Shown here piece by piece: positions 5,729 to 45,514 of a DNA stretch of 64,000 nt. The stretch is from the NCBI GenBank assembly GCA_963968885.1, contig CAXAGT010000003.1, forward strand, positions 431-64,430. The letters are read 5' to 3'. Each line of letters starts with the position of its first letter. Positions within the stretch are counted from its first letter, which is position 1. A model generated the notes under the pieces. That model had not been told where the DNA came from. It worked only from the letters and a program-made list of their open reading frames with translations, and searched no databases. The DNA comes from an uncultured Candidatus Poseidoniales archaeon. Lineage in GTDB: Archaea > Thermoplasmatota > Poseidoniia > Poseidoniales > Poseidoniaceae. Position numbers and translations under genes: made by a program.

Positions 5729-5729
5729 G

Positions 5730-6347: not shown

Positions 6348-6543
6348 TTGGTTCCATTTTGGAAACTAGTTCCACCGTTTCTAGGTTGAAACGACTCGTG
6401 AATTTAGTGACTCTAAAATCAGAGAATTATTGATAATTCGTTAGTGTCTTATGAACTTCACATACAACGATTTTATCCCTGCTAAACGCGTTTCTTAAGA
6501 ACCCCTCGCTGGTGGCTCAAGTTAAGCAGACCGAGGTTTTACC

Positions 6544-8751: not shown

Positions 8752-8760
8752 GTTGATTAA

Positions 8761-9234: not shown

Positions 9235-9313
9235 ACAGTTAACCATCCACCTTTCTTCAAAAATAGGGATATGGTCATAAGCCAGCGCAGTGACGGGATG
9301 TTAGGTGGAATAG

Positions 9314-9700
9314 ATGCCAGGTACAGACAGAGTTGAGATTCGAACATTAAAAGTTGGACGATACTGCGTTGTTGATGATGAAGCTTACAAGATTCTTAGC
9401 ATTTCAAAATCAAAACCAGGAAAACACGGATCTGCAAAAGCTAGGCTAGAACTTGTTTCACTATTTAGTAGTAAGAAAATCTCTCACGTCGGAACAGTTA
9501 CTGATTCGATCAACGTCCCTATGATTGAGAAAGGAACTGCTATGGTTACTCACTTAGAAGGAGCAGAAGTTCATGCTATGAACATGAGAGACCACTCCAT
9601 GATGATTCTGCCACTTGAAGATGGTTTGAGCATTGAGGCTGGTAAGGAGATCATGTGGATGGAAGCATTAGGCAGATACAAAATCATTAGAGACCACTGA
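9314..9700 (+). CDS. eif5a: translation initiation factor 5A (aIF5A)
   Basis: Hypusination loop SKSKPGKHGSAKA. 128 aa with an OB-fold C-terminal half. Confidence 0.9.
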   Translation: MPGTDRVEIRTLKVGRYCVVDDEAYKILSISKSKPGKHGSAKARLELVSLFSSKKISHVGTVTDSINVPMIEKGTAMVTHLEGAEVHAMNMRDHSMMILPLEDGLSIEAGKEIMWMEALGRYKIIRDH

Positions 9701-9706
9701 TTTTTT
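9701..9706 (+). terminator. oligo-T tract directly after the aIF5A stop (possible archaeal terminator)
   Basis: TGA is followed immediately by TTTTTT. Archaeal RNA polymerase terminates at oligo-T runs. Confidence 0.25.
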
Positions 9707-9782
9707 GAATCGGTTCTAAATATTCACATTTCCGATAAATATTCGGGGTTCATTTCATAAACTATCTTTATGATTAGATGTT

Positions 9783-11909: not shown

Positions 11910-12634
11910 GAATGAAAGCATTCACGGCAATTCAGCATGTTCTATCTGTACTATTTATTGGAGTAATGGCATTAATCTGGGGAATTCCAGTTGCGCCTGC
12001 ATTATGGTTCATGAATGAAGTGAACCACGTTGCGGAAGGTCAATCATCTGAATGGATGGGTTACCTAATACAAGGAGTAGGCGGTGCTGGTGCATTTATG
12101 GTATGGGGATTGAGCATGCTAACTTTATCGGGTGTTCTCCAAGCTATAATCCACCCAAGAGTGCCAGACGAAGGGAAAGTAGTGAAATTGTTCTCAAGGA
12201 CCACTGTAGGCTGGGCTGCCTGTGCAGCAATGCACAGGGCAACTAAACCATTCTTGGTACATGTTTGCCCATCTATTTTTGCAAATACATATTACAGGCT
12301 TGCTGGAGTCAAGATGGGTTCTGATGTCAACATTACCTCTGAGGATATCAATGACCCATCTTTGACAAGAATTGGTTCTGGTACAGTAGTTGGTGGTAAA
12401 GCAGCTATCAATGGACACATAGTTGAGAAAGGACAATTAGTACTTGCTCCAATTGTTATTGGTGAATCTTGCCTAGTCGGTGGTGGATCTTTGATGATGC
12501 CAGGATCTAAGATGGAAGATAATTCCGTAATTGGAAATAGAACTTTAGTTCCTAAGTATAAATCAATTCCAGAAAACGAAGTGTGGGCTGGTGTTCCAGC
12601 AAAAATGGTCAGCCAAAAGTCAAAACGTGAGTGA
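11906..12634 (+). CDS. membrane-anchored hexapeptide-repeat (left-handed beta-helix) protein
   Basis: Two N-terminal TM helices, then imperfect hexapeptide repeats (GSDVNITSE, IGSGTVVGGKAAINGHIV, IGESCLVGGGS, SVIGNRT). ATGA overlap with the MFS gene. Confidence 0.5.
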   Translation: MRMKAFTAIQHVLSVLFIGVMALIWGIPVAPALWFMNEVNHVAEGQSSEWMGYLIQGVGGAGAFMVWGLSMLTLSGVLQAIIHPRVPDEGKVVKLFSRTTVGWAACAAMHRATKPFLVHVCPSIFANTYYRLAGVKMGSDVNITSEDINDPSLTRIGSGTVVGGKAAINGHIVEKGQLVLAPIVIGESCLVGGGSLMMPGSKMEDNSVIGNRTLVPKYKSIPENEVWAGVPAKMVSQKSKRE

Positions 12635-12743
12635 TTTAATTTCTCTTTAATTCACAGATTTTTGAACAAATCTAAGGGTAATGGTCTTGAAGTGTCTAAC
12701 ATTCCGGCATATAGTGCAGATGCTGCATTTCGGAGTTGAGTGA

Positions 12744-27463: not shown

Positions 27464-29251
27464 ATGAACGGCCTAGTGTTGGAAGAATTGGTGAGAACAG
27501 TGTCTGGGTATGGGATAGATGATGTTCCAAGCGTCACTTTAAGTGACGAGCAGTCCAGTTTACTCAAAGGACAAGATTTAGCACAAGCACAACTAATGGC
27601 TGAAAAGGTAATTCTAGTTGATGAGTATGATAACGTGATTGGTTCTGATTCAAAAATTGACACTCACTATGATGTGGGAAAATTGCATCGTGCCTTCTCC
27701 GTCCTTCTATTCAATTCAGAAGGTAAGTTATTACTTCAAAGAAGAGCACTAGACAAGGTAACCTTTCCTGGTGTTTGGGCTAATACATGTTGCTCTCATC
27801 CTTTGGCTAGCGAAGAAGAAATGAATCCTGATGGTTACATCGGAACTAAAGTTGCCGCAGTTAGGAAAATGGAGCAAGAATTAGGTATTAGTCCATCTCA
27901 AATATCAACCGGTGATTTGCAATTTGTTACAAAAATGCTATACCAAGCAAGAATGAATCGTGAATGGATTGAAAGAGAATTGGATCATATTCTAGTTATC
28001 AGAGCTGATGTTGATTTAAATCCAAATCCAAATGAAGTTTCTGAAGTAAAATGGGTAAATGCAGAAGAGTTACGAGACATGATAAGTCAACAAACTGAAG
28101 ATACTGGATATGTCGCTCCTTGGTTTAGATGCATTGCAGAAGATATCATGACTGCCGATTGGTGGGAGGCTGGTTCAACAGGTTCTGGGTTTGAAAAATT
28201 AGTTGATGGTAAAATCCATGACATGGGGGATGTGACTTTCCTTCTTCCAAATGCTGAACCTGCAAGTTACAAGACCTCATTGTTGGAAGTTATGCCGGCA
28301 GTAGAAAAAAGGATTGAAACCTCTCTCAGAAACACAAGTCACAAAAGATTGTCTGATGCTATGATGCATTTGATTGATGGCGGAGGTAAAAGAATGCGAG
28401 CAAGTCTTCCTTGGCTAGTTGCTAACGCGACTGGGAGATCACATTCCGGAATTATCGATGTGGGATCTGTAATCGAAATTATTCACAACTTTACTTTGGT
28501 TCATGACGATATAATGGATGATGATGACATAAGGAGAGGAAGAAATGCTGTTCACATAGAATATGATATGCCCACAGCAATCAATGCAGGAGATGCTATG
28601 CTAGCAATTGCCTTTGAGACTCTTTATGATGCAAAGAATATTTCAACAGAAGATACTGTTACAATTTTCAAGAAAATAGCATGGATGGTTCGCAGAGTAA
28701 GCGAAGGTCAACAATTAGATATAGAATTCGAGGATAGAGAAATTGTAGAAGAGGATGAGTATATCGAGATGATTCTAGGTAAAACCTCTGTCATGTTTAT
28801 CATCTGTGCGGAAATTGGTGCTTTCCTTTCTGGGTCAAATCAAGAGGTCGTTGATATGATGGCAAAATGGGGAGAAAATACAGGTATCTGTTTCCAACTT
28901 ATGGACGATATAATTGACATCATGTCATCGACTGAGGAATTAGGTAAGCCAGCAGGATCTGATATCGTACAAGGAAAAAAGACATTGATGGCTATCCACG
29001 CATTAAGACAACCAGACTCTCCAGCAAAACAAGCATTCTTGGCAGCATACAACAAAGGGGACGATTGTCCAAAAGAAATTAGAGATGCGGCTCATGATGC
29101 CTTACATGAATTAGGTTCAGTTGAATATGCAAAACAACGTGCAGTTGAATACCACTCTGCTGCACACGATATCTTGAATCAACTACCACATAGACCTGGT
29201 TTGGCTGTTCTGAGAGAATTAACCGATATTCAACTAAAAAGAATGGTTTGA
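27464..29251 (+). CDS. fusion of type-1 IPP isomerase (Nudix-type IDI) and geranylgeranyl diphosphate synthase
   Basis: N-terminal half has LHRAFSVLLFN..FPGVWANTCCSHPL. C-terminal half has the FARM motif LVHDDIMDDDDIRRGR and the SARM motif FQLMDDIID. Confidence 0.85.
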   Translation: MNGLVLEELVRTVSGYGIDDVPSVTLSDEQSSLLKGQDLAQAQLMAEKVILVDEYDNVIGSDSKIDTHYDVGKLHRAFSVLLFNSEGKLLLQRRALDKVTFPGVWANTCCSHPLASEEEMNPDGYIGTKVAAVRKMEQELGISPSQISTGDLQFVTKMLYQARMNREWIERELDHILVIRADVDLNPNPNEVSEVKWVNAEELRDMISQQTEDTGYVAPWFRCIAEDIMTADWWEAGSTGSGFEKLVDGKIHDMGDVTFLLPNAEPASYKTSLLEVMPAVEKRIETSLRNTSHKRLSDAMMHLIDGGGKRMRASLPWLVANATGRSHSGIIDVGSVIEIIHNFTLVHDDIMDDDDIRRGRNAVHIEYDMPTAINAGDAMLAIAFETLYDAKNISTEDTVTIFKKIAWMVRRVSEGQQLDIEFEDREIVEEDEYIEMILGKTSVMFIICAEIGAFLSGSNQEVVDMMAKWGENTGICFQLMDDIIDIMSSTEELGKPAGSDIVQGKKTLMAIHALRQPDSPAKQAFLAAYNKGDDCPKEIRDAAHDALHELGSVEYAKQRAVEYHSAAHDILNQLPHRPGLAVLRELTDIQLKRMV

Positions 29252-30918: not shown

Positions 30919-32076
30919 CTACGAATTCTCCATTCTCATGATAATAGGCTTAGCGATTTTGATACTTATGAATCTAAATATCGACCAGTTTAACCTTCTA
31001 AACCAGTTTAGATTCTTGGTGTAAACCATAGTATATTCGGGAACTGAGATGCCTCCACGTAACTTTTTGAATTCCATAGCACCAGAACTTGCGTGTCTTC
31101 GTAATTGATGCTCAGAGCAAAATGTTGCAATTCTAGCTGTTATTACCCTGTAAAGGTCATCAGAAAATTCCTGATTAAAATCATAGCCGAGAATTGGATT
31201 AGTTGACAATCCATCTATGGTAAACATCCCCAAGACTCCTACCATTTCATCATCTTTGTACAATAGGTGGTAAGTGTAGATCTCGTTTTGTATAGTTCCT
31301 AAGAAGTAGTCCAGAGTGAACTGTGGATTGTATTTTGAGTATTTATCCAAGTATAATTGGTCATACAGATTCTTTACCCTCAAAGCCTGTTCTTCAGTTA
31401 ACTCATCAACCATCTCCCAATGTAATCCATGCTCTTTTTGTAATTTCAAGTCTCTATTAATTTGCCTTCTATTGGCTCTCTTGTAGTCAGAGAGTTTTGT
31501 GTGGGGGAAAAGAATAATATTTCTCGAAAAAATCCTCTTGAATCCATAATCGACAAGATACTGCTCCAAATCTGAACATGTTGTCGAATTAATCGATCGG
31601 AATATGATTGCATCTTTCTTGTTATTTTTCAGTACATTATCTATGATTTGTCCGAACTCATCCAAATTAGGATTCTTAGGATATAGATTGGTTGATATTC
31701 CCCAATTATTGAGCATGATGGAATTATCTATTTTTGCCATTCGAAGGAATAAGGCAAGTGTCTCAAGCATAGGATAAACAATGAATCGGCTAAAGCCTAA
31801 ATTTTCTATCTCAATTTCTCTTTTTGCGTAGTGGTAATTATGGCTCATTTGAGATACAGTGTAGCAAGCTTTCTTATTTTTCATCGAGTTTTTAGTGTAA
31901 GGCAATATAGTAGAACCAGATGATAAAAAACCACTTTCACAGTTGAAATTGGACACAAAATCATTGAGATTTCTTTCCTTCAACATCTCTGCAAAGGAAT
32001 CAATTTTTTGGCTGAAGGTCTTGTTTTCCACTAATTTTATTGACGACATTCTATTTAACAAATTTTCTCCATTCAT
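30919..32076 (-). CDS. hypothetical protein, possible Fem/CelD-type GNAT-fold acyl- or aminoacyl-transferase
   Basis: The C-terminal third ([34 protein letters not shown]) recalls FemAB/CelD-like acetyltransferase domains, which is weak evidence. Start set at the Met preceded by GGAG. Confidence 0.35.
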
Positions 32077-32163
32077 TTTTCTCCTGGAATAGTAAATTCC
32101 ATCCATGTGATAACTGGGGAAATCCGGAACAAGATTGATTTGTTTAGTTTACTCTTACCAACT

Positions 32164-33303
32164 ATGGCAAGGGTGCTGGTGTCTTGTGGTAGGGCTCCAG
32201 CAGCGATACATCTTGCAAAACTATTCTCTCTTGCTGGGCATGAAGTAATCATTGCAGATTCCAATCGGTTCCATTTTGGCAGATATAGAAAATGGGCACA
32301 CAAGATAATGAAACATCCATCCCCAAGGCATAATCCCGATGAATTTGTTTCTTGGCTAAATGATGTGATTAAGACTGAAAAAATTGATTTAATTGTTCCA
32401 GTGTATGAAGAAACGTTTCATTTTTCTTATCACAAAGATTCAATTCCATGCAAAATATTTACTTCAGATATAGATATCCTTGATACACTACACGATAAGT
32501 TTAGATTCATAGAATTCTGTAAATCAATTGGCTTAGATGTGCCTGAGACGGTAAAAATAACCGATGTTAATGAATTAGAAAATTCACCAATTGATGATTT
32601 CATTGCCAAACCAGTATACTCAAGATTTGGTCATAATGTACAATTCAATCCCACAGCCAAAAACTTTCGAGGAAAGATCAGCAATGATAGACCTTGGATA
32701 TTGCAAGAACGGGTTCATGGAGTACAATATTGCTTGCAAGGTATTTGCTTTGAAGGAAAAGTCCTGTCAGTCTCTTGTTATGGTAGTGAATTTACCGTAT
32801 CAAAGTCTTCAGTTCTTTTCAAGAATAATGAGCGAGGAGACATTGGCGGAATTATAGCAAAGGTCGCAAAAGAGCTGAACTATACTGGCTTCATTTGTTT
32901 TGATGTATTCGAATCTGAAGATGGGCGAATATTACCTATAGAATGTAATCCACGGGCTACAAGTGCACTTCATCTTTATTCCGATAATGATAACTTAGCA
33001 GGTTGTATATTGGAGAATCAACAAATTGAGGCTACTGGAATTGCTCGTAGAATCACTGCTCCTATGTACATCAACCTATCAAGGAATCTGTTCAAGAAAG
33101 GACATTTCAAGAAATGGCGAAGGGCAATGAGAGAATCAAAAAGTACTGAATTAGACCGGTTTTCAATTAGAATTTCTTTACTAAAATATCTGGTTTTATT
33201 GAATTTCATAACCGTTGCACTAAGAAATAGAATTTCCATAATTTCGGCTACGAGTTTTGAGTATGAATGGAATGAAGACGAAAAAAAACGGGTGAATCTT
33301 TAA
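32164..33303 (+). CDS. ATP-grasp family ligase
   Basis: Pre-ATP-grasp region RVLVSCGRAPAAIHLAKLFSLAGHEVIIADS, central WILQERVHGVQYCLQG, and ILPIECNPRATSALHLY. Confidence 0.7.
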   Translation: MARVLVSCGRAPAAIHLAKLFSLAGHEVIIADSNRFHFGRYRKWAHKIMKHPSPRHNPDEFVSWLNDVIKTEKIDLIVPVYEETFHFSYHKDSIPCKIFTSDIDILDTLHDKFRFIEFCKSIGLDVPETVKITDVNELENSPIDDFIAKPVYSRFGHNVQFNPTAKNFRGKISNDRPWILQERVHGVQYCLQGICFEGKVLSVSCYGSEFTVSKSSVLFKNNERGDIGGIIAKVAKELNYTGFICFDVFESEDGRILPIECNPRATSALHLYSDNDNLAGCILENQQIEATGIARRITAPMYINLSRNLFKKGHFKKWRRAMRESKSTELDRFSIRISLLKYLVLLNFITVALRNRISIISATSFEYEWNEDEKKRVNL

Positions 33304-33340
33304 TTGTGTAATTTTCACAAAGCGAGGTAGGTGAGATAAT

Positions 33341-34351
33341 TTGTTTACACAGATTAGTGGTTTTGCCTCTTATCTACCAAGCAAAGTTGTCAATACAGAA
33401 GACTTCGCTCCCCAAGGACGCCTGCCTCAGAAAATCGATTTGAAGAGGCTTACCAAAATCAAGACTCATCACGAAGCTGATGAATCTGAGAGTTCGATTT
33501 CAATGGCTATCGAAGCGGCAAAAAAAGCAATTGGGAGATCTAAAATTGATTTATCTGAAATAGATCTCGTCATCTATTGTGCAGTCTCTAAAATGAATGA
33601 TAAATTAGAGCAATTAATTTCGCCTTCAATGGCTTCTGTAATTTGTGATGAATTAGGAATTAATGTGCGCTCCTTTGATGTCTCAAACGCATGTTCGGGA
33701 ATGGTTACAGGTCTTATGATTGCTAACTCTCAAGTTCAATCTGGTGCCTGTAAAAACGCATTGGTATTGTCGGGAGAATACCTCTCGCCTGCTCTATATG
33801 AAGCACTATCCCGAAATTTATATCTCAACAAGAAAGCAATTCCAAGCCTAACTATTGGTGATGCTGGTTGTGCCTATGTTATATCACAATCCAAAGAGCA
33901 ACGAATAAATTTTTACGAGCCGGTTACTTTGTCAAAATATGATGATATGTGCATCGCTGAGGCTGCTAAAGGTATGAAAGGGCCAGCGATGAGAACAGAT
34001 GGTAGGGGATTGCAGAATGCAGGACTGACTAATCTTGGTCCATACCTTAGAAGAAATATTACATCGGATGCATGGGATGAATATGCACACGTTATTTCCC
34101 ACCAAACCTCTCCTCGTGCGGTTGGCAAAGGAGCGGATATTGCAGGGAGTATTTTTGGAACACCAGAAAAGGTTAGATCTACTGATCACGCAGGAAATAC
34201 TGCCTCCACAACTCATGGTGTTGTCCTAGAGAATTTGCTATCCAATAATTCAATTCAAGGAGATCAAAGGATATTATTGGTGGCTTTTGGTAGTGGATTG
34301 AGCATGATTGGTGTAGACTTCATGACTCCAAAGGAGGCAGGTTCTTGGTAA
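33341..34351 (+). CDS. KASIII (FabH)-like condensing enzyme with intact Cys-His-Asn triad
   Basis: SNACSGM (Cys), VISHQTS (His) and HAGNTAS (Asn). TTG start preceded by AGGTGAG. Confidence 0.75.
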   Translation: MFTQISGFASYLPSKVVNTEDFAPQGRLPQKIDLKRLTKIKTHHEADESESSISMAIEAAKKAIGRSKIDLSEIDLVIYCAVSKMNDKLEQLISPSMASVICDELGINVRSFDVSNACSGMVTGLMIANSQVQSGACKNALVLSGEYLSPALYEALSRNLYLNKKAIPSLTIGDAGCAYVISQSKEQRINFYEPVTLSKYDDMCIAEAAKGMKGPAMRTDGRGLQNAGLTNLGPYLRRNITSDAWDEYAHVISHQTSPRAVGKGADIAGSIFGTPEKVRSTDHAGNTASTTHGVVLENLLSNNSIQGDQRILLVAFGSGLSMIGVDFMTPKEAGSW

Positions 34352-35055
34352 GCCTAGTTGCTTGGAGTAAGATTAGCATCGGGTCAAGGAACCCTGCTAA
34401 GAATATTGCAAAAATGGCAACTGCGTTTTTACAGGAAAATAGTATCAATAAATCAGATATTGGACTTTTGATTCATTCTGGAGTGTACAGAATAAATTTC
34501 AGAGCAGAGCCTGCTTTTGCTCCTAATATACAGAAATATATGGGGTTAGGCGACGATGAAATATCATACCAAAGCAATCACGTTTTTTCATTTGATGTCT
34601 TAGATGGGACCTGTGGTCCTCATCATGCAATTCAGACTATTTCTGACATGTTTCAATATGTTAATTGCAAATATGCTATTTTGGTTGTCTCTGACGAGAA
34701 ACCAAATTCTCTGCATAAGTCTGGAGATTTTTCTTCATGCATTATTTGCGTATTCGCCAAAGACGGGAATTTCAAATTACAAGAATCCAAATTCTGGAAT
34801 ATAGATGGAGAATTGCCTACTACATACGCCTCATTCAACGGGAAACAACATTACCTAAACCCTCCGAACAACCTTGTTAATGAACAAGGTGTCCAAGATA
34901 ACAACTCTTTTTCCTCCGATTCAAATTTGTCAAGCGCAAACAAAATGATCGATTTTTTCAATTGGGCAAATGGGAAAATAGGTACTGTTGAACACATAAT
35001 CAATGATGTTAATGGTAAAAATAGTTCCTTGGTTTGGAGGATAGATGATGCATAG
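34345..35055 (+). CDS. truncated thiolase-fold protein (N-terminal half only), probable non-catalytic partner
   Basis: Resembles the FabH N-terminal half (IGLLIHSGVYR..EPAFAPNIQKYMGL..FDVLDGTCGP) but has no HQ or GNT motif. TTG start 7 nt after AAGGAGG, overlapping the upstream stop. Confidence 0.45.
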   Translation: MVSLVAWSKISIGSRNPAKNIAKMATAFLQENSINKSDIGLLIHSGVYRINFRAEPAFAPNIQKYMGLGDDEISYQSNHVFSFDVLDGTCGPHHAIQTISDMFQYVNCKYAILVVSDEKPNSLHKSGDFSSCIICVFAKDGNFKLQESKFWNIDGELPTTYASFNGKQHYLNPPNNLVNEQGVQDNNSFSSDSNLSSANKMIDFFNWANGKIGTVEHIINDVNGKNSSLVWRIDDA

Positions 35056-36640
35056 GGAGAAATTCCTCTATTGGTTCTGTGCATTTTCTGCTCTCTATCA
35101 TTTTACTTCAAGAGTTGGAATGTCAATCGACATTCAATGGCACACCGACGTGGGAAGAGATGAATTCCTTACTCCACCTCATGTGATGGTACTAGCTGGC
35201 TTACCAGTATGTATTATTCTGTGCTTATACTATATCCTCTCAAGTAAAAAAATTAGACAAGAATTAATTGTTGAAAATGATACAGAGTACAATTTCTTTG
35301 GTTTTTTTGCACCAATTGAGATTTGGTTTACTCTTGTCGGCATGTTAACGATAATTGTCGGAGCATTTTACGATAATTATTGGCATGCACAATTTGGTGT
35401 TGATACTACGATAGTAACGCCTCCACACATGCTTACCTTATCTGGGGGTATGATTGCGGAATTTTCTGCTATTCTTCTCATACATAGATATTTGAAAGAG
35501 TCTGGCAAGAAAATTGATGCGATAATGACGATTTCGCTTCTTCTGCTACTCTGGACTTTGTTATTCCACCTTTCATTTGCATCACTGAATTTCATGGATT
35601 CAAGATATGTCTTTACCGAAGTATTTGGGTTCAACCTTATGCTTCACTTTTTTGTTGCTCCAGTAATTCTTTTCTTTATGATCAAACTTTGCAAAGATTT
35701 CTTTGGAGAACTGAAACTAATACAATTCGGATTGGTAACGCTGGCAATTCAAGCCTTCTTGTTGGTGATGAATCCGATTTTCGTTGATTTACTCATGAAC
35801 GAAGGTCATGTGTACAGACCTGGAGCGCCTACTCCTGTTTGGAGTGCGCATTCAGTTACATGGCTATTCTTGCCACTGTGTCTGTTGAATGTTAAATTCA
35901 ATCTAACTGAAAAACCATTAATTTTCATCCCAATACTCTTAGCCAGTGATGTATTATTTTCTCCATTCTCTCCTCAGTTCTTTGCTTTCGAAAAAGGAAT
36001 ACCAACATTATTTGCAAATATCATTCTTGCATGGATCTTTACCCACTTGATGGTAAGAGTTGTGACAATCTATCTCGAGGACCTGTCAGGCAGTGAAACA
36101 AAATCAAGAGGATTATCTCCTAACCTAACTCCAGTGATTGCTGTTTTGATGATATTATTAGTATCTCCAGTTTCTGCTCATCATCCAACCTTCATTCCAG
36201 GTAATGGTCTTGATGCTCCTATGAGAGTTCAAACCCACTTAGATGATACAATCGTCGAGGTTGAATTCATGCTTTGGCCTCCAAAAGCACCTCAACATTG
36301 TGAAATAATGCTACTTGCAACAGAATCTGAACAAGATGTTGAATCACTGTGGATAGAGATTTTATTCGAAGATGAATTAGATGATGTAATAATGCCTCAA
36401 GATTTTGAGAAGTTTACTGACCAGGATATTTGGTTAGGGGACGTTAGATTTACATTTAGTGGAAATCAAACCATCATAGTAAAAGGAATGATCGACGGAG
36501 AGTTGCGAGAGGATAGTTTCCAAATTGACGTAGAAGAGCCTACTACGGTTCCAGTTTGGCTTGGTTGGCTTATTTCTACTCTATGGGCATCGGGTTTGAT
36601 TTACTTGCCTTGGAGATTTGCTAAGAGGCCACTATCATGA
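35045..36640 (+). CDS. polytopic membrane protein with duplicated WH...TPPH motif and a C-terminal extracytoplasmic domain
   Basis: At least 10 predicted TM helices. A soluble stretch of about 140 aa sits between the last two TM helices. GGAGG lies 4 nt upstream, and the start overlaps the upstream stop. Confidence 0.5.
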   Translation: MMHREKFLYWFCAFSALYHFTSRVGMSIDIQWHTDVGRDEFLTPPHVMVLAGLPVCIILCLYYILSSKKIRQELIVENDTEYNFFGFFAPIEIWFTLVGMLTIIVGAFYDNYWHAQFGVDTTIVTPPHMLTLSGGMIAEFSAILLIHRYLKESGKKIDAIMTISLLLLLWTLLFHLSFASLNFMDSRYVFTEVFGFNLMLHFFVAPVILFFMIKLCKDFFGELKLIQFGLVTLAIQAFLLVMNPIFVDLLMNEGHVYRPGAPTPVWSAHSVTWLFLPLCLLNVKFNLTEKPLIFIPILLASDVLFSPFSPQFFAFEKGIPTLFANIILAWIFTHLMVRVVTIYLEDLSGSETKSRGLSPNLTPVIAVLMILLVSPVSAHHPTFIPGNGLDAPMRVQTHLDDTIVEVEFMLWPPKAPQHCEIMLLATESEQDVESLWIEILFEDELDDVIMPQDFEKFTDQDIWLGDVRFTFSGNQTIIVKGMIDGELREDSFQIDVEEPTTVPVWLGWLISTLWASGLIYLPWRFAKRPLS

Positions 36641-37539
36641 GAGTACTAGTAAGCGGTGCTACTGGCTCTCTTGGTAGTCAAATATTGAATAGGCTTGCTG
36701 GTAAGTATGAATTAGGTGGTATCTCAAGAAACTCAGACAAAATCGAGAATCTTGGATTAGATTGCAAGGGCTTCTCTCTTGATTTAGTTAAAGACGATAT
36801 TAGCGATGCATTGCAAGGTTTTGATGTCTTCATTCATTGCGCTGCATTTGCCTCTGCTCACGGTGACAAAACTCAATTTGATGCAAATGTCTTGATGATC
36901 GAAAATATCCTCCCTGCTTTAGAAGAAGCTGGAATATTCACCATATTCATTTCATCTGCATCAATATTCGATGATATGCCACGAAATGAATTACAAACAA
37001 ATCCTAATATTCGTCCAAAATCTTTCTATTCAAAGTCAAAGTATGATTGTGAAAAAGTAATTCTCGAAACATCATACAAGAACTGGACAGGACTTCGTCC
37101 CAGAGCAGTTATTGGAAAAGGTGATCAAACCCTTGCTCCAAAATTAAACAATTTGATCAAAAAGAAAAGAGTAATAATTCCTGGTAATGGTGACTCATTG
37201 CTTGATTATACAACTATGAGTGATTTTCTCGATTCTGTTGAATGCTCTATAGAAGCGCAAGCAAAAGGGAGATTTTACAATATTTCCAGCGGAAAGCCGT
37301 TAACATTCAAGTCCATGATCATGGAATATGCCAGCAAAGTTCACGGTGTTGAAAAAAGTCGTAGTGTTCCTTTACTCCCTTTGCGAATCCTATCCTCTAT
37401 TGCTCCAAACCAAAGAATAAATCATTATTCACTAGACCAGATTACTAAACCAATGAGATTAGATATCTCAGAGAGTGTAAGGGATTTAGGTTGGTCTCCA
37501 AAACAGACTTTTTCTGAATGCTTGGAGGAGTTAATATGA
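36637..37539 (+). CDS. NAD-dependent epimerase/dehydratase-family (extended SDR) protein
   Basis: VSGATGSLGS (GxxGxxG) and YSKSKYDCE (YxxxK). ATGA overlap with the upstream gene. Confidence 0.8.
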   Translation: MRVLVSGATGSLGSQILNRLAGKYELGGISRNSDKIENLGLDCKGFSLDLVKDDISDALQGFDVFIHCAAFASAHGDKTQFDANVLMIENILPALEEAGIFTIFISSASIFDDMPRNELQTNPNIRPKSFYSKSKYDCEKVILETSYKNWTGLRPRAVIGKGDQTLAPKLNNLIKKKRVIIPGNGDSLLDYTTMSDFLDSVECSIEAQAKGRFYNISSGKPLTFKSMIMEYASKVHGVEKSRSVPLLPLRILSSIAPNQRINHYSLDQITKPMRLDISESVRDLGWSPKQTFSECLEELI

Positions 37540-38804
37540 GTAAGTTATTGACTCTATGGACTTATTTCAAGACCCCTAAGAAGATAAAATCTAGAGATAA
37601 GCTGCTCAAAAAACAAGAGAAGTCAATGCTCAAGCATGTAAAAAAAATAAGAAGAAATTCAAAATTCTTCCAAGAACACTGGAAAGACTATTCAGATGAT
37701 GATTGGAGAGAATTTCCTATCCTAGATAAGGCAACAATGATGTCAAATCTTCAAGATTATTTGACAGTTGATCTCGATGTTGAATACGCAAAGAATCTGG
37801 CTCTGTCTGCGGAAAAGTCGAGGGATTTCACCGAAAAAATCGATGGTTATTCAGTTGGTTTTTCATCAGGTACAAGCGGAGCAAGAGGAATGCATATCGT
37901 TTCAAAGGCTGAACAGGATAGATGGTCTGGATATATGATGGCAAGGGGTTTAGGGGGTTCTATTTTCTCTAAACATAACATTGGTCTATTTTTGAGAGCT
38001 AATTCGAATACATACGAAAATGTCGGTTCTAGGAATATCAAATTCCACTTTTTTGATCTGATGAAACCTATGGATGAGTTGGTTGAGAAGTTGCGTGAAA
38101 CTAATTTAGACATCTTAATTGCTCCACCTAGCGTGCTTAGATATCTTGCTGACAATAATGTCAATTTGAAATTACGTAGGATCGTATCCTCTGCAGAAGT
38201 TCTTACTCAAGTTGATAAAAAAGTAATAGAGGAGCATTTCAAACAAATTGTTCATCAATTCTATTCATCGACTGAGGGTGAAATTGCTGCTACTTGTGAA
38301 TTGGGTAATTTACATCTAAATGAAGAGATAATGGTCATCCAGAAAGAGTGGGTGGATGAAGACAGAGGGATATTCCGTCCAATAATCAGTGATTTTGTCA
38401 GAATTACTCAGCCAATTATACGTTACAGACAAAATGATTTGCTGGTCCTTGGAAAAGGTCTTTGCCCATGCGGTGATGCTAGGGAGTACATCACTGAGGT
38501 AATTGGTAGACAAGACGACATATTCCTTTTGCAGAATAAGACTGGAGAAATTGAGCATGTAGTTCCTGATTTAATTCGTAGAGCAACTCTGCAAATGTCA
38601 AACAAGATTGAATCATATTTTGTCGAACAAATTAGTGAGAATGAAATTAATGTAATGATTCAGCCAAAAATTGAGGATCTTGACATGTCCGGATTCAATC
38701 AACTATGGGCTTCGAAGAGTTTGATTCCGCCAAAACTGAATTTCCTTGAGTATGAATATCAGCCATCAGCAACAAAGATGCGCAGGATAAGAAGGAGGTT
38801 CTAG
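37536..38804 (+). CDS. adenylate-forming enzyme, PaaK / coenzyme F390 synthetase-like
   Basis: GFSSGTSGARG (SSGTTG-type motif), YSSTEGEIA and YRQNDLL. ATGA overlap with the SDR stop, with GGAGG 7 nt upstream. Confidence 0.65.
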   Translation: MSKLLTLWTYFKTPKKIKSRDKLLKKQEKSMLKHVKKIRRNSKFFQEHWKDYSDDDWREFPILDKATMMSNLQDYLTVDLDVEYAKNLALSAEKSRDFTEKIDGYSVGFSSGTSGARGMHIVSKAEQDRWSGYMMARGLGGSIFSKHNIGLFLRANSNTYENVGSRNIKFHFFDLMKPMDELVEKLRETNLDILIAPPSVLRYLADNNVNLKLRRIVSSAEVLTQVDKKVIEEHFKQIVHQFYSSTEGEIAATCELGNLHLNEEIMVIQKEWVDEDRGIFRPIISDFVRITQPIIRYRQNDLLVLGKGLCPCGDAREYITEVIGRQDDIFLLQNKTGEIEHVVPDLIRRATLQMSNKIESYFVEQISENEINVMIQPKIEDLDMSGFNQLWASKSLIPPKLNFLEYEYQPSATKMRRIRRRF

Positions 38805-38806
38805 AC

Positions 38807-39577
38807 TTGGAATTGCCTCTATTCATTGTTCTTTTTTCAGCGATAGTCATAATTTTTGTTTGGTTGATGCAAATATTTAGGAAGACAGCATTTACCTTTG
38901 TTTCAGTATTTTCAGTACTTATTTTTGTACTTGCAGATACAGATTCATTAAATCTATTTTTTATTGCTAAGGTTTTAAGTGTAATTTTTCCAATAATACT
39001 TTTTTCATACCTGCAAGGATTCAAGCAAAAGGCTGATGGAAACCTGTTAATGATTGGAATTATGGAATTAGTGATCATTGTAAATATATTTGAAGCAGCA
39101 ATTTATTCTTTGTCTTACTCAGATATCCCAGTTTTCCTCATGGGCTTGTGTCTGATTATTTCTATGCCAAATTTTGAGATGAATGAAAATAATCTGCTTG
39201 GATTTAACGACCCGATTTGGTCTTTTGCTTACACAATTACATTGATTCTAGGTTTCATTAGATTTGATGGGCACACCGAGTATATCGTCCCAGGGATTCT
39301 TATCCTATCACTTGGAATTATTCTACCTGCTATTACCAAAAAATGGTTTCAATGGCTTAACTTCAGAGTGTACAGCCTTTACCTAATTCTTACGTTAGAC
39401 TTGATTTTCAGAGATGGAGATATTGGTTTGTATGAGTTCCTTATGCCTGGCTTAATCCAAAATACTGAATTAGACAACACAATCAATTTTATTGCCACCT
39501 CTTTGTGTACGGTGACTTGTATCGCATTATTATTTAGAAGAGCAAAGGTTAGTCAACCAATAGTATTGGATGATTAA
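38807..39577 (+). CDS. hypothetical polytopic membrane protein
   Basis: About 8 hydrophobic helices. TTG start 2 nt after the upstream stop, with AAGGAGG 8 nt upstream. Confidence 0.45.
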   Translation: MELPLFIVLFSAIVIIFVWLMQIFRKTAFTFVSVFSVLIFVLADTDSLNLFFIAKVLSVIFPIILFSYLQGFKQKADGNLLMIGIMELVIIVNIFEAAIYSLSYSDIPVFLMGLCLIISMPNFEMNENNLLGFNDPIWSFAYTITLILGFIRFDGHTEYIVPGILILSLGIILPAITKKWFQWLNFRVYSLYLILTLDLIFRDGDIGLYEFLMPGLIQNTELDNTINFIATSLCTVTCIALLFRRAKVSQPIVLDD

Positions 39578-39579
39578 TT

Positions 39580-39655
39580 TGGTAGCCCGACTCGGATTCG
39601 AACCGAGGTCGGCGGGACCAAAACCCACCATGATGGACCCCTACACTATCGGGCT
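39580..39655 (-). tRNA. tRNA-Gln (anticodon UUG), CCA encoded
   Basis: The reverse complement folds by hand as a cloverleaf. Acceptor stem AGCCCGA/TCGGGCT, anticodon stem GTGGG/CCCGC with loop TTTTGGT, T arm CTCGG-TTCGAAT-CCGAG, discriminator A, then CCA. Confidence 0.9.
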
Positions 39656-44461: not shown

Positions 44462-45514
44462 TCACAACTTTAAATCGGGAATATCAGGTGCTCTAAAAGG
44501 AGTCACTCCTCTTTTTCTTGTTGCGGTTTTGTACATGTCAGGAATAAATCTCTTGAATATAAAATTGAAAACTACTTTCACTGATTTTATTGGTTTTCTT
44601 ATCCCTTTAAATGGGTTTCCAAGTCCCTTAATGGGCATCAAAAATTGCTGAACTATGTTATCTGGAACTTCTTGATCAATGCCGTATGTATGAGGTCTCT
44701 CTTTAGGCATGTAATATGTCCCAAAGATGATGTCCCAAATCGGCAAGAAAGTAGAATAATTAGTCCAGATTGCTTCTCTGTGATTTGAATGATGCCAGTG
44801 GTGGAAATCTGGAGTCATAATTATTGGATGTAATATTCTCAATCGGATGTTGACATTTGCGTGCAGGAATAATCCTAGAATAACTTGAACCACCACTATT
44901 GCTCCAGTCAAAGTTGGGTCAAAACCAGCTGCAACTAGGAAGAAAAAGGCTGGAGCAATCAGTGAACCATCAAAGGGATGGGCTCTGAATCCGCTAACCC
45001 AATCAAGATGCTCTGTTGAATGGTGAATTGCATGAAATGGCCACAAATATTCAATTTCATGATAAAATCTGTGAGTCCAATAAACTAGGAAATCAAATAG
45101 AAGGACACTAGTCCACAACATCTGAGTTGGATATTTTTCAATTAACTGAGTGATATATGGGTTGATTAGTAATCCTGGTATCCATGCTAAACTCAAAATT
45201 CCTATTGCGATTGTGAATGCACCACCAATGGCTGCCATTGCTGGAGCAGCTAATGCGTAATTTATGTCTAAACGCCAGTGTTTTCTCCTAACAGGTTGTC
45301 CTTTGTGCCTAGGAAATATTTTTTCCAAAGGTACTACTAGGATAAATAGAACAATCAAACTGGTTAGAGGACCAAATGACTCCATCATAAAGGATAAACC
45401 AATCAGTGATACAGCGATGATTCTAACAAACCACTTCAGCAACCAATGCATTGATTTAGTTTCAATATCATCCTTTTCCCTCAAAGGAGATACAGTGCCA
45501 ATTAGTTCTTCCAT
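44462..45514 (-). CDS. fatty acid hydroxylase / sterol desaturase superfamily membrane di-iron enzyme
   Basis: Histidine boxes HRFYHE, HAIHHS and HHWHH, with 4-5 TM helices. Confidence 0.75.
   Translation of the reverse strand: MEELIGTVSPLREKDDIETKSMHWLLKWFVRIIAVSLIGLSFMMESFGPLTSLIVLFILVVPLEKIFPRHKGQPVRRKHWRLDINYALAAPAMAAIGGAFTIAIGILSLAWIPGLLINPYITQLIEKYPTQMLWTSVLLFDFLVYWTHRFYHEIEYLWPFHAIHHSTEHLDWVSGFRAHPFDGSLIAPAFFFLVAAGFDPTLTGAIVVVQVILGLFLHANVNIRLRILHPIIMTPDFHHWHHSNHREAIWTNYSTFLPIWDIIFGTYYMPKERPHTYGIDQEVPDNIVQQFLMPIKGLGNPFKGIRKPIKSVKVVFNFIFKRFIPDMYKTATRKRGVTPFRAPDIPDLKL

Follow-up and report, generated by a model that had tools for sequence, protein, structure and literature searches.

The eight genes found at positions 30919–39577 of the window, i.e., the whole 64,000-nt stretch of DNA that we analysed, are together best explained as a modular biosynthetic cassette of bacterial type, in the form that it takes in Poseidoniaceae (Marine Group IIa), a reading that we favour by a little over even chances. 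The core of this cassette is best explained as three enzymes, i.e., a KASIII, an extended SDR, and an adenylate-forming enzyme of the TIGR02304 family, and the cassette probably makes a modified fatty-acyl compound.

The ORF list and ARAGORN place all eight genes and a tRNA-Gln where an earlier note on this DNA had seen them. The tandem-GNAT gene g1 (30919–32076, minus strand) diverges from the ATP-grasp ligase gene g2 (32164–33303, plus strand), which opens a plus-strand operon. An ATG at 32076 gives g1 385 aa (its ORF extends to 32106), while an ATG at 32164 gives g2 379 aa (its ORF has a GTG start at 32107). The operon continues, all on the plus strand, with g3 (33341–34351, 336 aa, KASIII/FabH-like condensing enzyme), g4 (34345–35055, 236 aa, half-thiolase), g5 (35045–36640, 531 aa, polytopic membrane protein), g6 (36637–37539, 300 aa, extended SDR), g7 (37536–38804, 422 aa, F390-synthetase-related adenylate-forming enzyme), and g8 (38807–39577, 256 aa, polytopic membrane protein of unassigned family). 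tRNA-Gln(ttg) (39580–39655, minus strand) is a neighbour, outside the cluster unit. The tight junctions that had been described are present (overlaps of 7 and 11 nt, two more of the ATGA type, and one 2-nt gap), as are the SD-like motifs upstream of g3–g8 (GGAGG, AGGAG, AAGAGG, or GGTGA). Using one pattern, an SD-like motif is found for 7/8 cluster genes versus 11/45 other genes in the window.

Besides these overlapping junctions and SD-like motifs, conservation in relatives supports that the cluster genes are one co-inherited unit. The earlier note had made its idea depend on co-localisation in relatives, and g3-g4-g5-g6-g7 are colinear in ~27 loci (~27 Poseidoniales (MGII) species), with 29–69% identity and differing flanks. 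All 38 related genome loci are from Poseidoniales MAGs, and the EF-2 encoded in the window falls into a 90% cluster with the name Candidatus Poseidoniaceae archaeon; these two findings establish the organism assignment. The five genes are not always kept together, as two MGII species retain g6-g7 but lack g3–g5. A gene of the FA_hydroxylase family lies immediately upstream of g3 in six other MGII loci. The description of the cluster as "orphan" was wrong because g7 has more than 1,000 homologs and many Poseidoniales genomes preserve the core in synteny.

The bacterial cassette is widespread and consists of a KASIII, an SDR, an MBL hydrolase, and a TIGR02304 (F390-synthetase-related) protein, with either ATP-grasp/GNAT or PAP2/desaturase as optional genes. 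On Bacillus mycoides p237, the order is KASIII, ATP-grasp, SDR, MBL, F390-related, and a 381-aa protein. The same gene set is found in Pontibacillus, Paenibacillus, Ketogulonicigenium, Ralstonia, Escherichia coli, and a metagenomic contig (L043) with bacterial-looking flanking genes. Its locations include Bacillus plasmids and a Ralstonia megaplasmid, and 674 of 5,426 E. coli genomes carry it, uropathogenic E. coli included. By tblastn, g1, g2, g3, g6, and g7 each match bacterial cassettes, matches that at the sequence level show homology for these five genes. In addition, the E. coli cassette has a "sterol desaturase family" gene; the MGII FA_hydroxylase protein aligns with its product along most of the length at 35–40% identity (E 1e-74 to 1e-79). 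The bacterial counterpart did not feature in the earlier reading. Our literature search found no paper describing the function of the cassette, nor one on the pathway, in line with the earlier statement that no characterised archaeal pathway has this gene set.

Expected catalytic motifs or residues are found in g3, g6, and g7. g3 matches Pfam ACP_syn_III and ACP_syn_III_C, and residue-level alignments with FabH structures align its Cys118/His254/Asn286 to the FabH triad, bearing out the intact C-H-N triad proposed before. Against the PDB, it scores 72 bits with FabH, 50 with PqsD, 44 with OleA, and 39 with PqsC. It falls under the FabH equivalog cutoffs of NCBIfam, and both g3 and g6 are far under every curated equivalog cutoff. 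With the KASIII of bacterial cassettes, g3 scores no more than 59 bits, and the copies in E. coli and L043 give no match; since its resemblance to housekeeping FabH is thus at least as strong, the MGII KASIII may be a non-orthologous replacement. g4, previously read as a truncated thiolase-fold partner, is indeed the N-terminal thiolase-fold half alone, lacking the His/Asn half. It matches NCBIfam PRK09258 over residues 20–124 (31 bits), and its conserved Cys90 sits at the nucleophile position. When g4 orthologs were compared to g3 orthologs using hhalign (probability 96.3%, E 1.7e-9), the Cys of the g4 DGxCxP motif aligned with the active-site Cys of g3. g4 is MGII-specific and overlaps the end of g3 in ~27 loci.

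The assignments of g6 as an extended SDR and of g7 as a PaaK/F390-synthetase-like adenylating enzyme hold as well. g6 carries the motifs GATGSLG (residue 7) and YSKSK (residue 131), matches Pfam Epimerase (75 bits), RmlD_sub_bind, and 3Beta_HSD, and shares 23–29% identity with the oxidoreductases that the E. coli, Pontibacillus, and Bacillus cassettes encode. With 388 bits versus a cutoff of 251.9, g7 belongs to the TIGR02304 family "F390 synthetase-related" and has distant PaaK relatives in the PDB. Its motifs (SSGTSG at 110, YSSTEG at 243, CPCG at 310, and Lys414) are invariant in 20 MGII sequences, and its identity to the cassette gene is 38–39% in Bacillus and Pontibacillus, 37.6% in E. 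coli, and 33.5% in L043. g8 is peripheral: it lies beside g7 in only five loci, in either orientation, its homologs are found only in L032 (58%) and, on the opposite strand, in L002, L020, and L023 (~27%), and it has no Pfam match even at E ≤ 1.

g1 is an accessory module gene, confined to the nearest MGII clade and to Firmicutes/Bacteroidota cassettes. It has neither a Pfam nor an NCBIfam match. Its AF2 model (pLDDT 88) predicts a tandem GNAT protein, with best Foldseek matches to C-domains of MprF/aminoacyl-PG synthases (5vrv, E 1.9e-10; 6lv0, 4v36, and 4v35), FemX, and Sbb17, which agrees with its earlier description as Fem/GNAT-like. The gene that closes the cassette on B. mycoides p237 encodes a protein with 31% identity to g1 (E 1e-48); in Paenibacillus, the final cassette gene (384 aa, annotated as GNAT family) is the counterpart of g1 by position alone. 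g2, without a sequence relative in the PDB, is an ATP-grasp protein as had been noted, matching Pfam ATP-grasp_3 (27 bits, cutoff 23.2) and NCBIfam PRK06849 (281 bits, under the cutoff of 406). Its identity to the ATP-grasp protein encoded in the cassette is 33–37% for B. mycoides and Pontibacillus and 29% for L043.

g5 is a His-motif membrane protein, as first described, but it is not exporter-like, and the export role once suggested for it gives way to a duplicated metal-ligand motif, the first copy of which appears to match the AmoC/PmoC CuC site. Its 106 homologs are all "hypothetical" Poseidoniales proteins without a Pfam family; remote members of the g5 family lie in unrelated gene contexts. 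g5, with an AF2 model of pLDDT 77 and pTM 0.80, comprises an N-terminal helical AmoC/PmoC-like domain, a predicted TM helix, a β-sandwich from His379, and a C-terminal TM anchor. Searched against the PDB, the family profile finds AmoC/PmoC (13 of the 15 best matches; 9cl6_C, E 1.4e-6), with the similarity limited to ~60 residues. Pfam AmoC matches 8 of 33 family members at sub-threshold level and g5 itself not at all, and PmoC is not among the top 50 listed Foldseek matches of g5. Motif 1 (D29-x2-W-H33-x4-R38-D39-x6-H46; residues 29–46, positions 35129–35182), whose residues are invariant or near-invariant in MGII proteins and remote homologs, aligns in this profile search to AmoC "DASWHQVIIRDTSFTPSH". 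In PmoC, the CuC ligands are Asp156/His160/His173, plus Arg165 (PMC12576850). The D-x3-H-x12-H spacing and the conserved Arg suggest that motif 1 corresponds to these ligands, with a putative residue-number mapping. Motif 2 (D110-x2-W-H114-x3-G-x-D120-x7-H128; residues 110–128, positions 35372–35428) is an internal repeat of motif 1, invariant in alignment A4. Alone, it has no significant PDB match; equal spacing makes it a putative equivalent of PmoC CuD (Asn227/His231/His245). The C-terminal extracytoplasmic β-sandwich (residues ~379–497, positions 36179–36535), with DSSP strands at 393–497 in the AF2 model, follows a conserved small-x-small motif (VSA|H). In its predicted structure, it resembles copper-binding β-sandwich proteins, i.e., the copper-resistance protein CrdA (9ll2, E 1.5e-3, TM 0.77 on target) and the copper proteins FetP/P19, and His379 and an EFMxWPPKA motif are invariant in the family.

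Could the cluster instead be a recently acquired AT-rich island? Its GC is 36.8% versus 40.6% in the remaining window (36.9% versus 40.6% as means of 60-nt lines, SD 5.9 in each), it is the lowest-GC 8.66-kb stretch within the window, and per-gene GC differs from that of other genes (Mann–Whitney p = 1.4e-4). The contrast first reported (27/32% versus 52/55%) was overstated, having been drawn from hand-picked 60-nt lines. While GC differs from the flanks, GC3 does not (32.6% inside versus 31.7% outside, p = 0.69), so amino-acid composition, not foreign codon usage, accounts for the dip. The proteins are, as had been noted, N/K/I/F-rich (N+K+I+F 27.1% in the cluster versus 20.5% outside). No att-like repeat was found, tRNA-Gln having no direct repeat at the opposite cluster border, and relatives' cassettes lie near other tRNAs or near none. 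Flank-like GC3, no att-like repeat, and a core present in ~27 species rule out a recent island.

The proposed OleA/OleD/OleC analogy fared no better. OleD is the top NCBIfam model for g6, at 86 bits versus a cutoff of 580; OleC belongs to Pfam AMP-binding (PF00501), which g7 does not match; and there is no OleB in the cluster. We count the cluster as neither an ole nor a pqs locus.

From family or superfamily membership, on which all the chemical steps rest, a route can be proposed for a cluster that contains no ACP, thioesterase, or CoA ligase. g3 (Cys-His-Asn), probably with g4, would condense acyl-CoA units to a β-keto-acyl product, which g6 would reduce to the β-hydroxy form. g7 would then use ATP either to adenylate a carboxylate or to AMP-ylate a hydroxyl as in F390 synthetase, which would ready the product to be ligated or lactonised or to undergo elimination. 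The divergently oriented genes g2 (ATP-grasp) and g1 (MprF/FemX-like) may, in this lineage, add an aminoacyl or amide decoration. g5, whose outward-facing His/Asp cluster would mirror the CuC ligand set of PmoC/AmoC and is joined to the copper-protein-like β-sandwich, may bind copper and oxidise or otherwise process the hydrophobic product in the membrane. As our best guess, the cluster makes an acyl lipid that is oxidised, associated with the membrane, and possibly aminoacylated. The MGII version departs from the bacterial cassette, where the final step would fall to the MBL-fold hydrolase: it has no MBL, g5 occupies the same position, and the half-thiolase and the 531-aa membrane protein together replace that hydrolase.

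The eight genes of the cluster (g1 to g8) were all found with the strands and junctions that an earlier note on this DNA had given them. On the minus strand, g1 encodes a tandem GNAT protein (30919–32076, with its ORF extending to 32106). The plus strand carries g2 for an ATP-grasp enzyme (32164–33303, with a GTG ORF start at 32107), g3 for a KASIII-like enzyme (33341–34351), g4 for a half-thiolase (34345–35055), g5 for a 531-residue membrane protein (35045–36640), g6 for an extended SDR (36637–37539), g7 for an F390 synthetase-related protein (37536–38804) and g8 for a 256-residue membrane protein (38807–39577), which adjoins a minus-strand tRNA-Gln(ttg) gene (39580–39655). From g3 to g8, successive genes overlap by 7 nt, by 11 nt and twice by ATGA, and the last two are 2 nt apart; each of these six genes has a GGTGA, GGAGG or AAGAGG motif on its 5′ side. 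When one pattern was applied to all 53 long ORFs of the window, an SD-like motif preceded 7 of the 8 cluster genes and 11 of the 45 others. The tight coupling of the cluster genes is real, as are the SD-like motifs described with it.

The claim that the cluster is AT-rich stood in part. The cluster has a GC content of 36.8%, compared with 40.6% in the remainder of the window; no other stretch of 8.66 kb in the window is as low, and per-gene GC differs between cluster and other genes (Mann–Whitney, p = 1.4e-4), but the originally reported contrast of 27–32% with 52–55% did not survive these values. Nor is the codon usage foreign, as had been suspected, with GC3 at 32.6% in the cluster and 31.7% outside (p = 0.69). 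Since GC3 is equal and the proportion of N, K, I and F residues is raised (27.1% in the cluster vs. 20.5% outside), the GC dip reflects protein composition rather than foreign codon usage. Outside the cluster, the lowest GC (35.2%) is that of a gene for an 803-residue WD40/β-propeller-like protein (60230–62641, minus strand). The window also encodes a 595-residue fusion of a NUDIX (type-1 IPP isomerase-like) domain and a polyprenyl synthase (27464–29251, plus strand), whose Pfam families were taken from the identical gene in the related Poseidoniales locus L001, and two OPT-family oligopeptide transporters (12744–15230, plus strand; 53089–55197, minus strand).

The reading of g3 as a KASIII with an intact catalytic triad was upheld, with Cys118, His254 and Asn286 each falling on its counterpart in the FabH motifs C(A/S)G, HQAN and GNT(S/A). 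In the PDB and in NCBIfam, g3 is most similar to bona fide FabH enzymes, with PDB scores of 72 bits for FabH, 50 for PqsD, 44 for OleA from Xanthomonas and 39 for PqsC. By curated thresholds, g3 is nevertheless not a housekeeping FabH (115.2 vs. 292.1 bits for TIGR00747 and 125.4 vs. 249 bits for NF006829). As for g4, it has no Pfam match, but a profile of its orthologs matches the g3 profile with 96.3% probability (E 1.7e-9) over g3 residues 57–201, which places the conserved cysteine of its DGxCxP motif (Cys90) on the position of the g3 nucleophile. The C-terminal half bearing His and Asn is missing, in keeping with its description as a truncated thiolase-fold partner.

The assignments of g6 as an extended SDR and of g7 as a PaaK/F390 synthetase-like enzyme were likewise confirmed. 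Motifs GATGSLG and YSKSK are present in g6, which matches the sugar-nucleotide epimerase/dehydratase families Epimerase, RmlD_sub_bind and GDP_Man_Dehyd in Pfam, and whose best curated model is OleD (NF042422, 2-alkyl-3-oxoalkanoate reductase), at 86.2 bits vs. a cutoff of 580. In contrast, g7 scores above the TIGR02304 cutoff (388.3 vs. 251.9 bits, covering positions 9–427 of the 428-residue ORF) and is, on sequence grounds, a true member of this "F390 synthetase-related protein" family. A Ser/Thr/Gly-rich P-loop, YxxTEG and a C-terminal Lys are the established motifs of the ANL family, and the corresponding SSGTSG (position 110), YSSTEG (position 243) and K414 of g7 are invariant in 20 MGII (Marine Group II, or Poseidoniales) sequences. 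The relatives of g7 in the PDB are distant PaaK proteins, and no PF00501 match was found at E ≤ 0.01. A CPCG sequence at residues 310–313 (Cys310, Cys312) is invariant in 20/20 aligned MGII g7 proteins.

Of the remaining proteins, g2 matches Pfam ATP-grasp_3, as the earlier note would have it; its closest NCBIfam model is the 'hypothetical protein' PRK06849 (281 bits, under the cutoff of 406), and it has no match among PDB sequences. No family match was found for g1, nor any sequence-level match to DUF2156 or FemAB. Its AF2 model, built on an 18-sequence alignment, predicts a tandem GNAT fold (pLDDT 88), and the best Foldseek matches are the aminoacyl-phosphatidylglycerol synthase domains of MprF, FemX and the aminoacyl-tRNA-dependent peptide synthase Sbb17 (5vrv at E 1.9e-10; also 6lv0, 4v36, 6snr and 7z6a), which is consistent with the proposed Fem/GNAT-like character. 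Polytopic and membrane-bound, g8 has no Pfam match even at E ≤ 1.

How widespread is this gene set? The EF-2 of the window falls in a 90%-identity cluster named Candidatus Poseidoniaceae archaeon, and the ENA scaffold L001 is near-identical to the window. In that scaffold g5 is split by a 100-N gap at ~8160–8259, from which the source gene caller derived a 251-residue fragment; the gap rules out a frameshift, and the split is an artefact. We detected 1016 homologs of g7, mostly in marine metagenomes and at ~58–60% identity. A scan with the g7 alignment of one genome per GTDB species returned 38 loci, all in Poseidoniales MAGs and including the original MG-II assembly CM001443.1; since it relied on two strict peptide patterns, the scan returned Poseidoniales alone and is no gauge of cassette presence in MGIIb or other archaea. 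By tblastn and ORF clustering, g3-g4-g5-g6-g7 are colinear on one strand in ~27 loci, with identities to the window proteins of 40–55% (g3), 29–38% (g4), 32–44% (g5), 37–56% (g6) and 54–69% (g7). The other loci are truncated at contig ends, rearranged (L002) or contain g6-g7 alone (L024 and L028, ~9036–11269, where the pair lies directly 3′ of a TauE-like permease gene and g3-g5 are missing). In L002 (1054–10142), g2-g5-g6-g7 are on one strand and g4-g3, a glycosyltransferase gene and a g8-like gene are inverted downstream, which could be a genuine inversion or a MAG assembly chimera.

Outside this core, conservation is patchier. The g1-g2 pair is confined to the clade that is closest to the window (complete in L003, L006, L007, L009 and L032; cut or partial in L002 and L008), g8 was found in five loci, and the window flanks (hbd, IDI-GGPPS fusion, HD hydrolase and tRNA) are not conserved beside the cassette in relatives. 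Since the core is conserved and the flanks are not, the unit is best described as a long-resident MGIIa cassette that is mobile within the genome. The genes are thus co-localised in relatives, and the label "orphan" that the cluster had been given no longer applies. A gene for a Cupin_8/JmjC-like protein of ~303 residues, missing from the window, lies directly 3′ of g7 on the opposite strand in L003 (11315–12226, minus strand) and is also present in L005, L006, L007, L009 and L032 (after g8 in the last); these loci belong to the nearest clade and most of them also have g1-g2. In the same clade the cassette lies ~0.1–1.3 kb from tRNA genes of varied identity (Cys, Ala, Arg and Gln-ctg), at 11480–11551 in L002, 12488–12561 and 13307–13381 in L003, 4564–4637 in L004, and likewise in L006 and L007. 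This proximity may be a trace of past mobility; in the larger MGII clade no tRNA was found near the cassette.

The cassette also has bacterial counterparts. A tblastn search of plasmid records with g7 returned 46 records, the annotated neighbourhoods of which are strikingly uniform. In B. mycoides p237 and in Paenibacillus, the genes encode KASIII, ATP-grasp, NAD(P) oxidoreductase, MBL-fold hydrolase, F390 synthetase-related and ~380-residue GNAT-like proteins, in that order; Pontibacillus has the same order without the final GNAT-like gene, and Ketogulonicigenium has a four-gene core. E. coli and a Ralstonia wenshanensis megaplasmid add to the core a PAP2 phosphatase, a sterol-desaturase-family protein and an acyl-CoA desaturase, the seven genes running KASIII, SDR, MBL, F390-related, PAP2, sterol-desaturase and acyl-CoA desaturase at 6200–13081 of the E. 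coli locus (L041, NZ_CP141085.1), and the same seven being found at 4203–11112 of the Ralstonia locus (L050, megaplasmid p56D2). Among 5426 complete E. coli genomes, 674 carry this seven-gene set as an island flanked by narI and purU (the E. coli B2 island), strains ABU 83972 and NRG 857C being two of them. A metagenomic contig with bacterial-looking flanks (L043) carries ATP-grasp, g1-like, SDR, MBL, F390-related and KASIII genes, the ATP-grasp and g1-like genes being adjacent and overlapping. All the bacterial cassette genes are annotated in generic terms alone.

The window proteins g1, g2, g3, g6 and g7 each match genes of these bacterial cassettes, with 31–39% identity for g7, and 33–37% for g2 and 31% for g1 relative to the B. 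mycoides/Pontibacillus genes. Three of them, g3, g6 and g7, each have homologs in L040–L042 and are in one overlapping operon in the window. Lactamase_B was matched by none of the eight window proteins, g6 is the sole gene between g5 and g7, and no MBL-family gene cluster was found beside the MGII cassettes among the loci examined. In six other MGII loci, the gene directly 5′ of g3 belongs to the FA_hydroxylase family and is 35–40% identical, over most of its length, to the sterol-desaturase-family protein of the E. coli cassette (E 1e-74 to 1e-79). The window has an FA_hydroxylase-family gene 5 kb from the cluster (44462–45514, minus strand), with 29% identity to the E. coli gene over 200 residues. 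Since five genes and the FA_hydroxylase are homologous, the clusters of archaea and bacteria represent a single modular system in different versions, and the broad bacterial spread compared with a single archaeal order suggests an old transfer from bacteria to MGII. Our search of the full-text literature (F390-related, TIGR02304/PRK06849/PRK09258, Poseidoniales ketoacyl/FabH) found no functional study of the cassette. Three candidates that it brought up were set aside: a paper on the Pbo cluster is unrelated to the cassette, a ladderane paper concerns a different PaaK/F390-like clade, and Ralstonia RSp0194 is a PA3286 homolog unrelated to the cassette.

The most unusual member of the archaeal version is g5. 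A word-indexed search retrieved only Poseidoniales 'hypothetical proteins' and no Pfam family. Alignment of its homologs reveals two copies of a motif, D29-x2-W32-H33-x-D-x-G-R38-D39-x3-TPP-H46 and D110-x2-W113-H114-x3-G-x-D120-x4-TPP-H128, in addition to invariant His175, His201, His255 and His379. The AlphaFold model (pLDDT 77, pTM 0.80) has ~ten TM helices, a β-sandwich at residues 393–497 and a final TM anchor, and the positive-inside rule predicts that both motifs and the β-sandwich face outward. Foldseek matched the β-sandwich only, to CrdA (E 1.5e-3, TM 0.77 on target) and to the FetP/P19 copper proteins; the TM domain had no PDB match among the best 50 Foldseek matches listed, PmoC not being among these, and nothing informative came from a Foldseek search of the BFVD viral library. 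In all g5 homologs, His379 is directly preceded by a small-x-small motif (VSA|H, VSG|H or ASG|H; window 36170–36181, residues 376–379). As a speculation from the sequence, this would fit signal-peptidase cleavage exposing an N-terminal histidine within a polytopic protein.

An exhaustive profile search uncovered a wide g5 family of 1289 representatives of 50%-identity clusters. While ~four of these are full length, the others are ~400-residue membrane proteins that match the N-terminal 290 positions, belong to no Pfam family, are called 'hypothetical' and are mostly bacterial-looking, as in a Chloroflexota MAG. The residues that are invariant across the wide family are exactly the two motifs. 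When the family profile was compared with all PDB sequences, AmoC/PmoC accounted for 13 of the top 15 matches (best E 1.4e-6), with the profile segment D-x2-WH-x4-RD-x3-TP-x-H aligned to AmoC 'DASWHQVIIRDTSFTPSH'. In PmoC, the ligands of CuC are Asp156, His160 and His173, with Arg165 nearby, and those of CuD are Asn227, His231 and His245 (PMC12576850). At the same profile E value, D29, H33, R38 and H46 of g5, all invariant or nearly so, align with the corresponding AmoC residues. The first motif copy has the exact CuC spacing (Asp-x3-His-x12-His) and the second has the CuD spacing (x3, x13), although the second motif alone showed no significant PmoC similarity in the PDB, where it returned GPCR noise only. 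The double motif D-x2-WH...G-x-D...PPH, common to the ~1289 representatives, is related to the PmoC CuC site. Against Pfam AmoC (PF04896) g5 itself has no match, while 8 of 33 family members match below threshold (best E 0.0029; cutoff 26.7 bits), AmoC being the sole family matched by more than one of the 33. These findings replace the earlier picture of g5 as a His-motif exporter or assembly protein with that of a protein with a duplicated metal-ligand motif, the first copy of which matches the AmoC/PmoC CuC site. Since a remote family member lies in an unrelated gene context, the MGII g5 looks like a lineage-specific recruitment and fusion.

Taken together, our analysis establishes, at the level of sequence, the gene families and the intact predicted catalytic residues of g3, g6 and g7, and the operon structure, MGII conservation and bacterial homology of the cluster. 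The general picture that we favor, with moderate confidence, is that of an acyl-metabolite cassette, in which g3, perhaps as a heterodimer with g4, would make a β-keto-acyl product from acyl-CoA substrates, no ACP being encoded in the cluster. The product would be reduced by g6, after which g7 might activate a carboxylate or, much as F390 synthetase AMP-ylates a hydroxyl on F420, AMP-ylate a hydroxyl, priming ligation, lactonisation or elimination. At the position of the bacterial MBL hydrolase, g5 would work on the hydrophobic product at the membrane, with copper-dependent oxidation as a plausible reaction, and g2 and g1 would add an aminoacyl or amide group. An oxidised lipid-like product is favored because oxygenases recur in sister cassettes (FA_hydroxylase family and acyl-CoA desaturase, with Cupin_8/JmjC beside the g1-g2 clade), as does PAP2. 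That g5 is a genuine copper oxygenase is a tentative proposal that we consider rather unlikely, and we are equally doubtful that it founds a new group of single-chain relatives of copper membrane monooxygenases, recruited in MGII to oxidise the hydrophobic cassette product. Such a protein could combine a PmoC-like TM domain bearing CuC-like and CuD-like sites with a CopC/PmoB-like β-sandwich whose beginning is marked by a conserved His.

Several other explanations deserve to be weighed against this acyl-metabolite picture. The operon could be one for cell-envelope or glycan modification. A nucleotide sugar would then be the substrate of the SDR, a short hydroxyacyl group would be made or attached by the KASIII-like protein and g7, a surface polymer or lipid head group would receive amino acids from g1 and g2, and g5 and g8 would work on the outer side of the membrane. 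The Pfam families matched by g6 would suit this, as would the nearest folds of g1 (MprF and FemX modify envelope molecules), the outward-facing metal sites predicted for g5 by its model and the positive-inside rule, and a Glyco_trans_1_3 glycosyltransferase gene directly 5′ of g3 in L020 and L004 and beside it in L002. However, we think it improbable, as a glycosyltransferase is found in 3 of 38 loci, nucleotidyltransferase, flippase and polymerase are all missing, the bacterial cassettes are on plasmids without polysaccharide genes, and the PAP2, sterol-desaturase-family and acyl-CoA desaturase genes of the E. coli and Ralstonia versions point to lipid. Somewhat less probable again is the Ole-type route of the earlier note, with the KASIII as OleA (head-to-head), the SDR as OleD and the adenylating enzyme as OleC, leading to a β-lactone or long-chain olefin. 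OleC is a PF00501 ANL enzyme, yet g7 is without PF00501 and in the PaaK/F390 branch; OleD, although it is the best curated model of g6, scores 86 bits vs. a cutoff of 580; and the 44-bit match of g3 to Xanthomonas OleA structures is exceeded by those to FabH (72) and PqsD (50). In the nocardiolactone pathway two OleA homologues act together, which the g3-g4 thiolase pair recalls, and the order of thiolase, reductase, ATP-using enzyme and (in bacteria) hydrolase parallels OleA/D/C/B. The OleB α/β-hydrolase is missing, with no α/β-hydrolase family among the eight cluster proteins, and the OleA/OleD/OleC assignment is not supported. It is very unlikely that g3 is the FabH with which MGII initiate bacterial-type synthesis of fatty acids for their membrane lipids, the other genes being auxiliaries. 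Its best matches and intact triad, and the hbd, SDR and acyl-CoA dehydrogenase genes nearby in the window, speak for this, but apart from the failed FabH cutoffs, ACP, FabD, FabG, FabZ, FabI and FabF are all missing from the cluster, conservation beside the cassette does not extend to the flanking acyl-CoA genes, and cassette-bearing E. coli have their own separate FabH, the cassette being an accessory island of 12% of genomes.

Two further alternatives concern g5 alone and the origin of the whole unit. Unlikely, though less so than any of the three above, is that g5 is a copper-handling protein (CopC/CopD-like uptake or resistance) or an unrelated membrane protein, carried along as a passenger with no action on the product of the pathway. 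The resemblance of its C-terminal domain to the copper-handling CrdA and FetP/P19, and remote TM-domain homologs in unrelated gene contexts, argue for a passenger; its place between g4 and g6 in ~27 species, overlapping both in the window and abutting them in relatives, argues against it, as does the full-length architecture, which was seen in Poseidoniales sequences only and, in the 38 loci examined, always inside the cassette. The least credible reading, already largely refuted, is that of a strain-specific, recently acquired AT-rich island at tRNA-Gln. It could draw on the low GC, the abutting tRNA-Gln, the variable flanking genes, the tRNAs within ~1.3 kb of the cassette in five relatives and the frequent location of the bacterial homologs on plasmids or islands. 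Against it stand the unchanged GC3 and the lack of any direct tRNA repeat or att-like repeat at the cluster; nor is any integrase family recorded among the gene calls of the surrounding 21-kb region in L001. The core is colinear in ~27 Poseidoniales species at 29–69% identity, which implies that the cassette has long been resident in them. An ancient transfer from bacteria to the lineage is a separate claim, and a plausible one.

The Poseidoniales (Marine Group II), an uncultured group, rank with the most abundant archaea in surface seawater, and the lipids and metabolites that they make are still debated. A five-gene cassette kept across ~27 of their species is likely a trait under selection, and the interest of the cassette lies in a conserved pathway, which includes a PmoC-like metal-site protein, in archaea that are abundant and uncultured. 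The E. coli island and the six-gene plasmid versions of Bacillus and Paenibacillus make it testable now, and solving one version would name TIGR02304, PRK06849 and the GNAT-like family together. The PmoC/AmoC-type motif of g5 and its large unannotated family bear on the role of the PmoC copper sites and, if confirmed, would widen the known range of PmoC-site chemistry. Were the oxygenase reading true, copper oxygen chemistry of the PmoC type would be at work in lipid or secondary metabolism, beyond methane, ammonia and alkane oxidation, and the ~1300 unannotated clusters of ~400-residue bacterial proteins would be the wider family.

The cluster was compared with known systems, and it is not placed in an already characterised locus, with ole and pqs membership both failing; the original observation was largely correct and its enzyme-level interpretation good. 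The C-terminal domain of MprF and FemX share with g1 a predicted fold (Foldseek E 2e-10 to 1e-7, TM 0.5–0.6), but g1 lacks the MprF flippase domain as well as their sequence signatures, and its donor could be acyl-CoA instead of aminoacyl-tRNA. The likeness of g5 to AmoC/PmoC is confined to ~60 residues and misses the Pfam threshold, and g5 differs from them as a single chain set in a context of acyl biosynthesis rather than methane or ammonia oxidation, with no PmoA/AmoA or PmoB/AmoB gene in the window cluster or the 38 loci. What they have in common is a D-x3-H-x4-R-x7-H motif running from the end of one TM helix into the start of the following one, with the second g5 motif and its CuD spacing one helical hairpin later. 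Moreover, the predicted extracytoplasmic β-sandwich of g5 begins at a conserved His after a signal-peptidase-like motif, which is reminiscent of PmoB with its N-terminal His.

Among biosynthetic clusters, the dapdiamide enzymes DdaG and DdaF are a PaaK-like AMP-forming amide ligase and an ATP-grasp ligase that form successive amide bonds, and the pairing of a PaaK-branch adenylating enzyme with an ATP-grasp enzyme is found here too. The DdaG model matches g7 faintly (E 0.009, 15 bits; cutoff 700), and the dapdiamide cluster is not known to have a KASIII, SDR or membrane protein. In the pqs system, an active FabH-like PqsC works with a catalytically reduced FabH-like PqsB, which compares with g3 and g4; both systems have an adenylating enzyme, and the MBL-fold thioesterase PqsE parallels the MBL protein of the bacterial cassette. 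A pqs cluster was nevertheless ruled out, as neither a PF00501-type anthranilate-CoA ligase (PqsA) nor an MBL protein is among the eight proteins; g3 matches PqsD and PqsC weakly, and the pqs pathway is not known to have an SDR. OleABCD also pairs a thiolase-fold condensing enzyme with an SDR and then an ATP-using enzyme, but the membership scores fail, g7 is of PaaK/F390 rather than OleC type, and the window cluster has in addition ATP-grasp, GNAT and predicted membrane metalloprotein genes, none of which Ole clusters are known to carry.

The closest known system is the bacterial cassette. Both forms are tight, overlapping operons, the ATP-grasp and tandem-GNAT module is optional in both domains, and orthologous genes of the FA_hydroxylase family are found both with other MGII copies and in the E. 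coli/Ralstonia version. They differ in that MGII has no MBL hydrolase and has in its place g4 and g5, neither of which was found in the bacterial cassettes examined, and in that g1 and g2 are divergent and upstream in MGII, whereas their bacterial counterparts lie within the operon or close it. The core of the modular system is KASIII, SDR and TIGR02304 enzyme, onto which alternative add-ons are placed: the MBL hydrolase in bacteria, g4 and g5 in MGII, ATP-grasp with tandem GNAT, or membrane di-iron oxygenases with PAP2. The window cluster is a member of this TIGR02304 cassette family by its g7, and a variant by its gene content.
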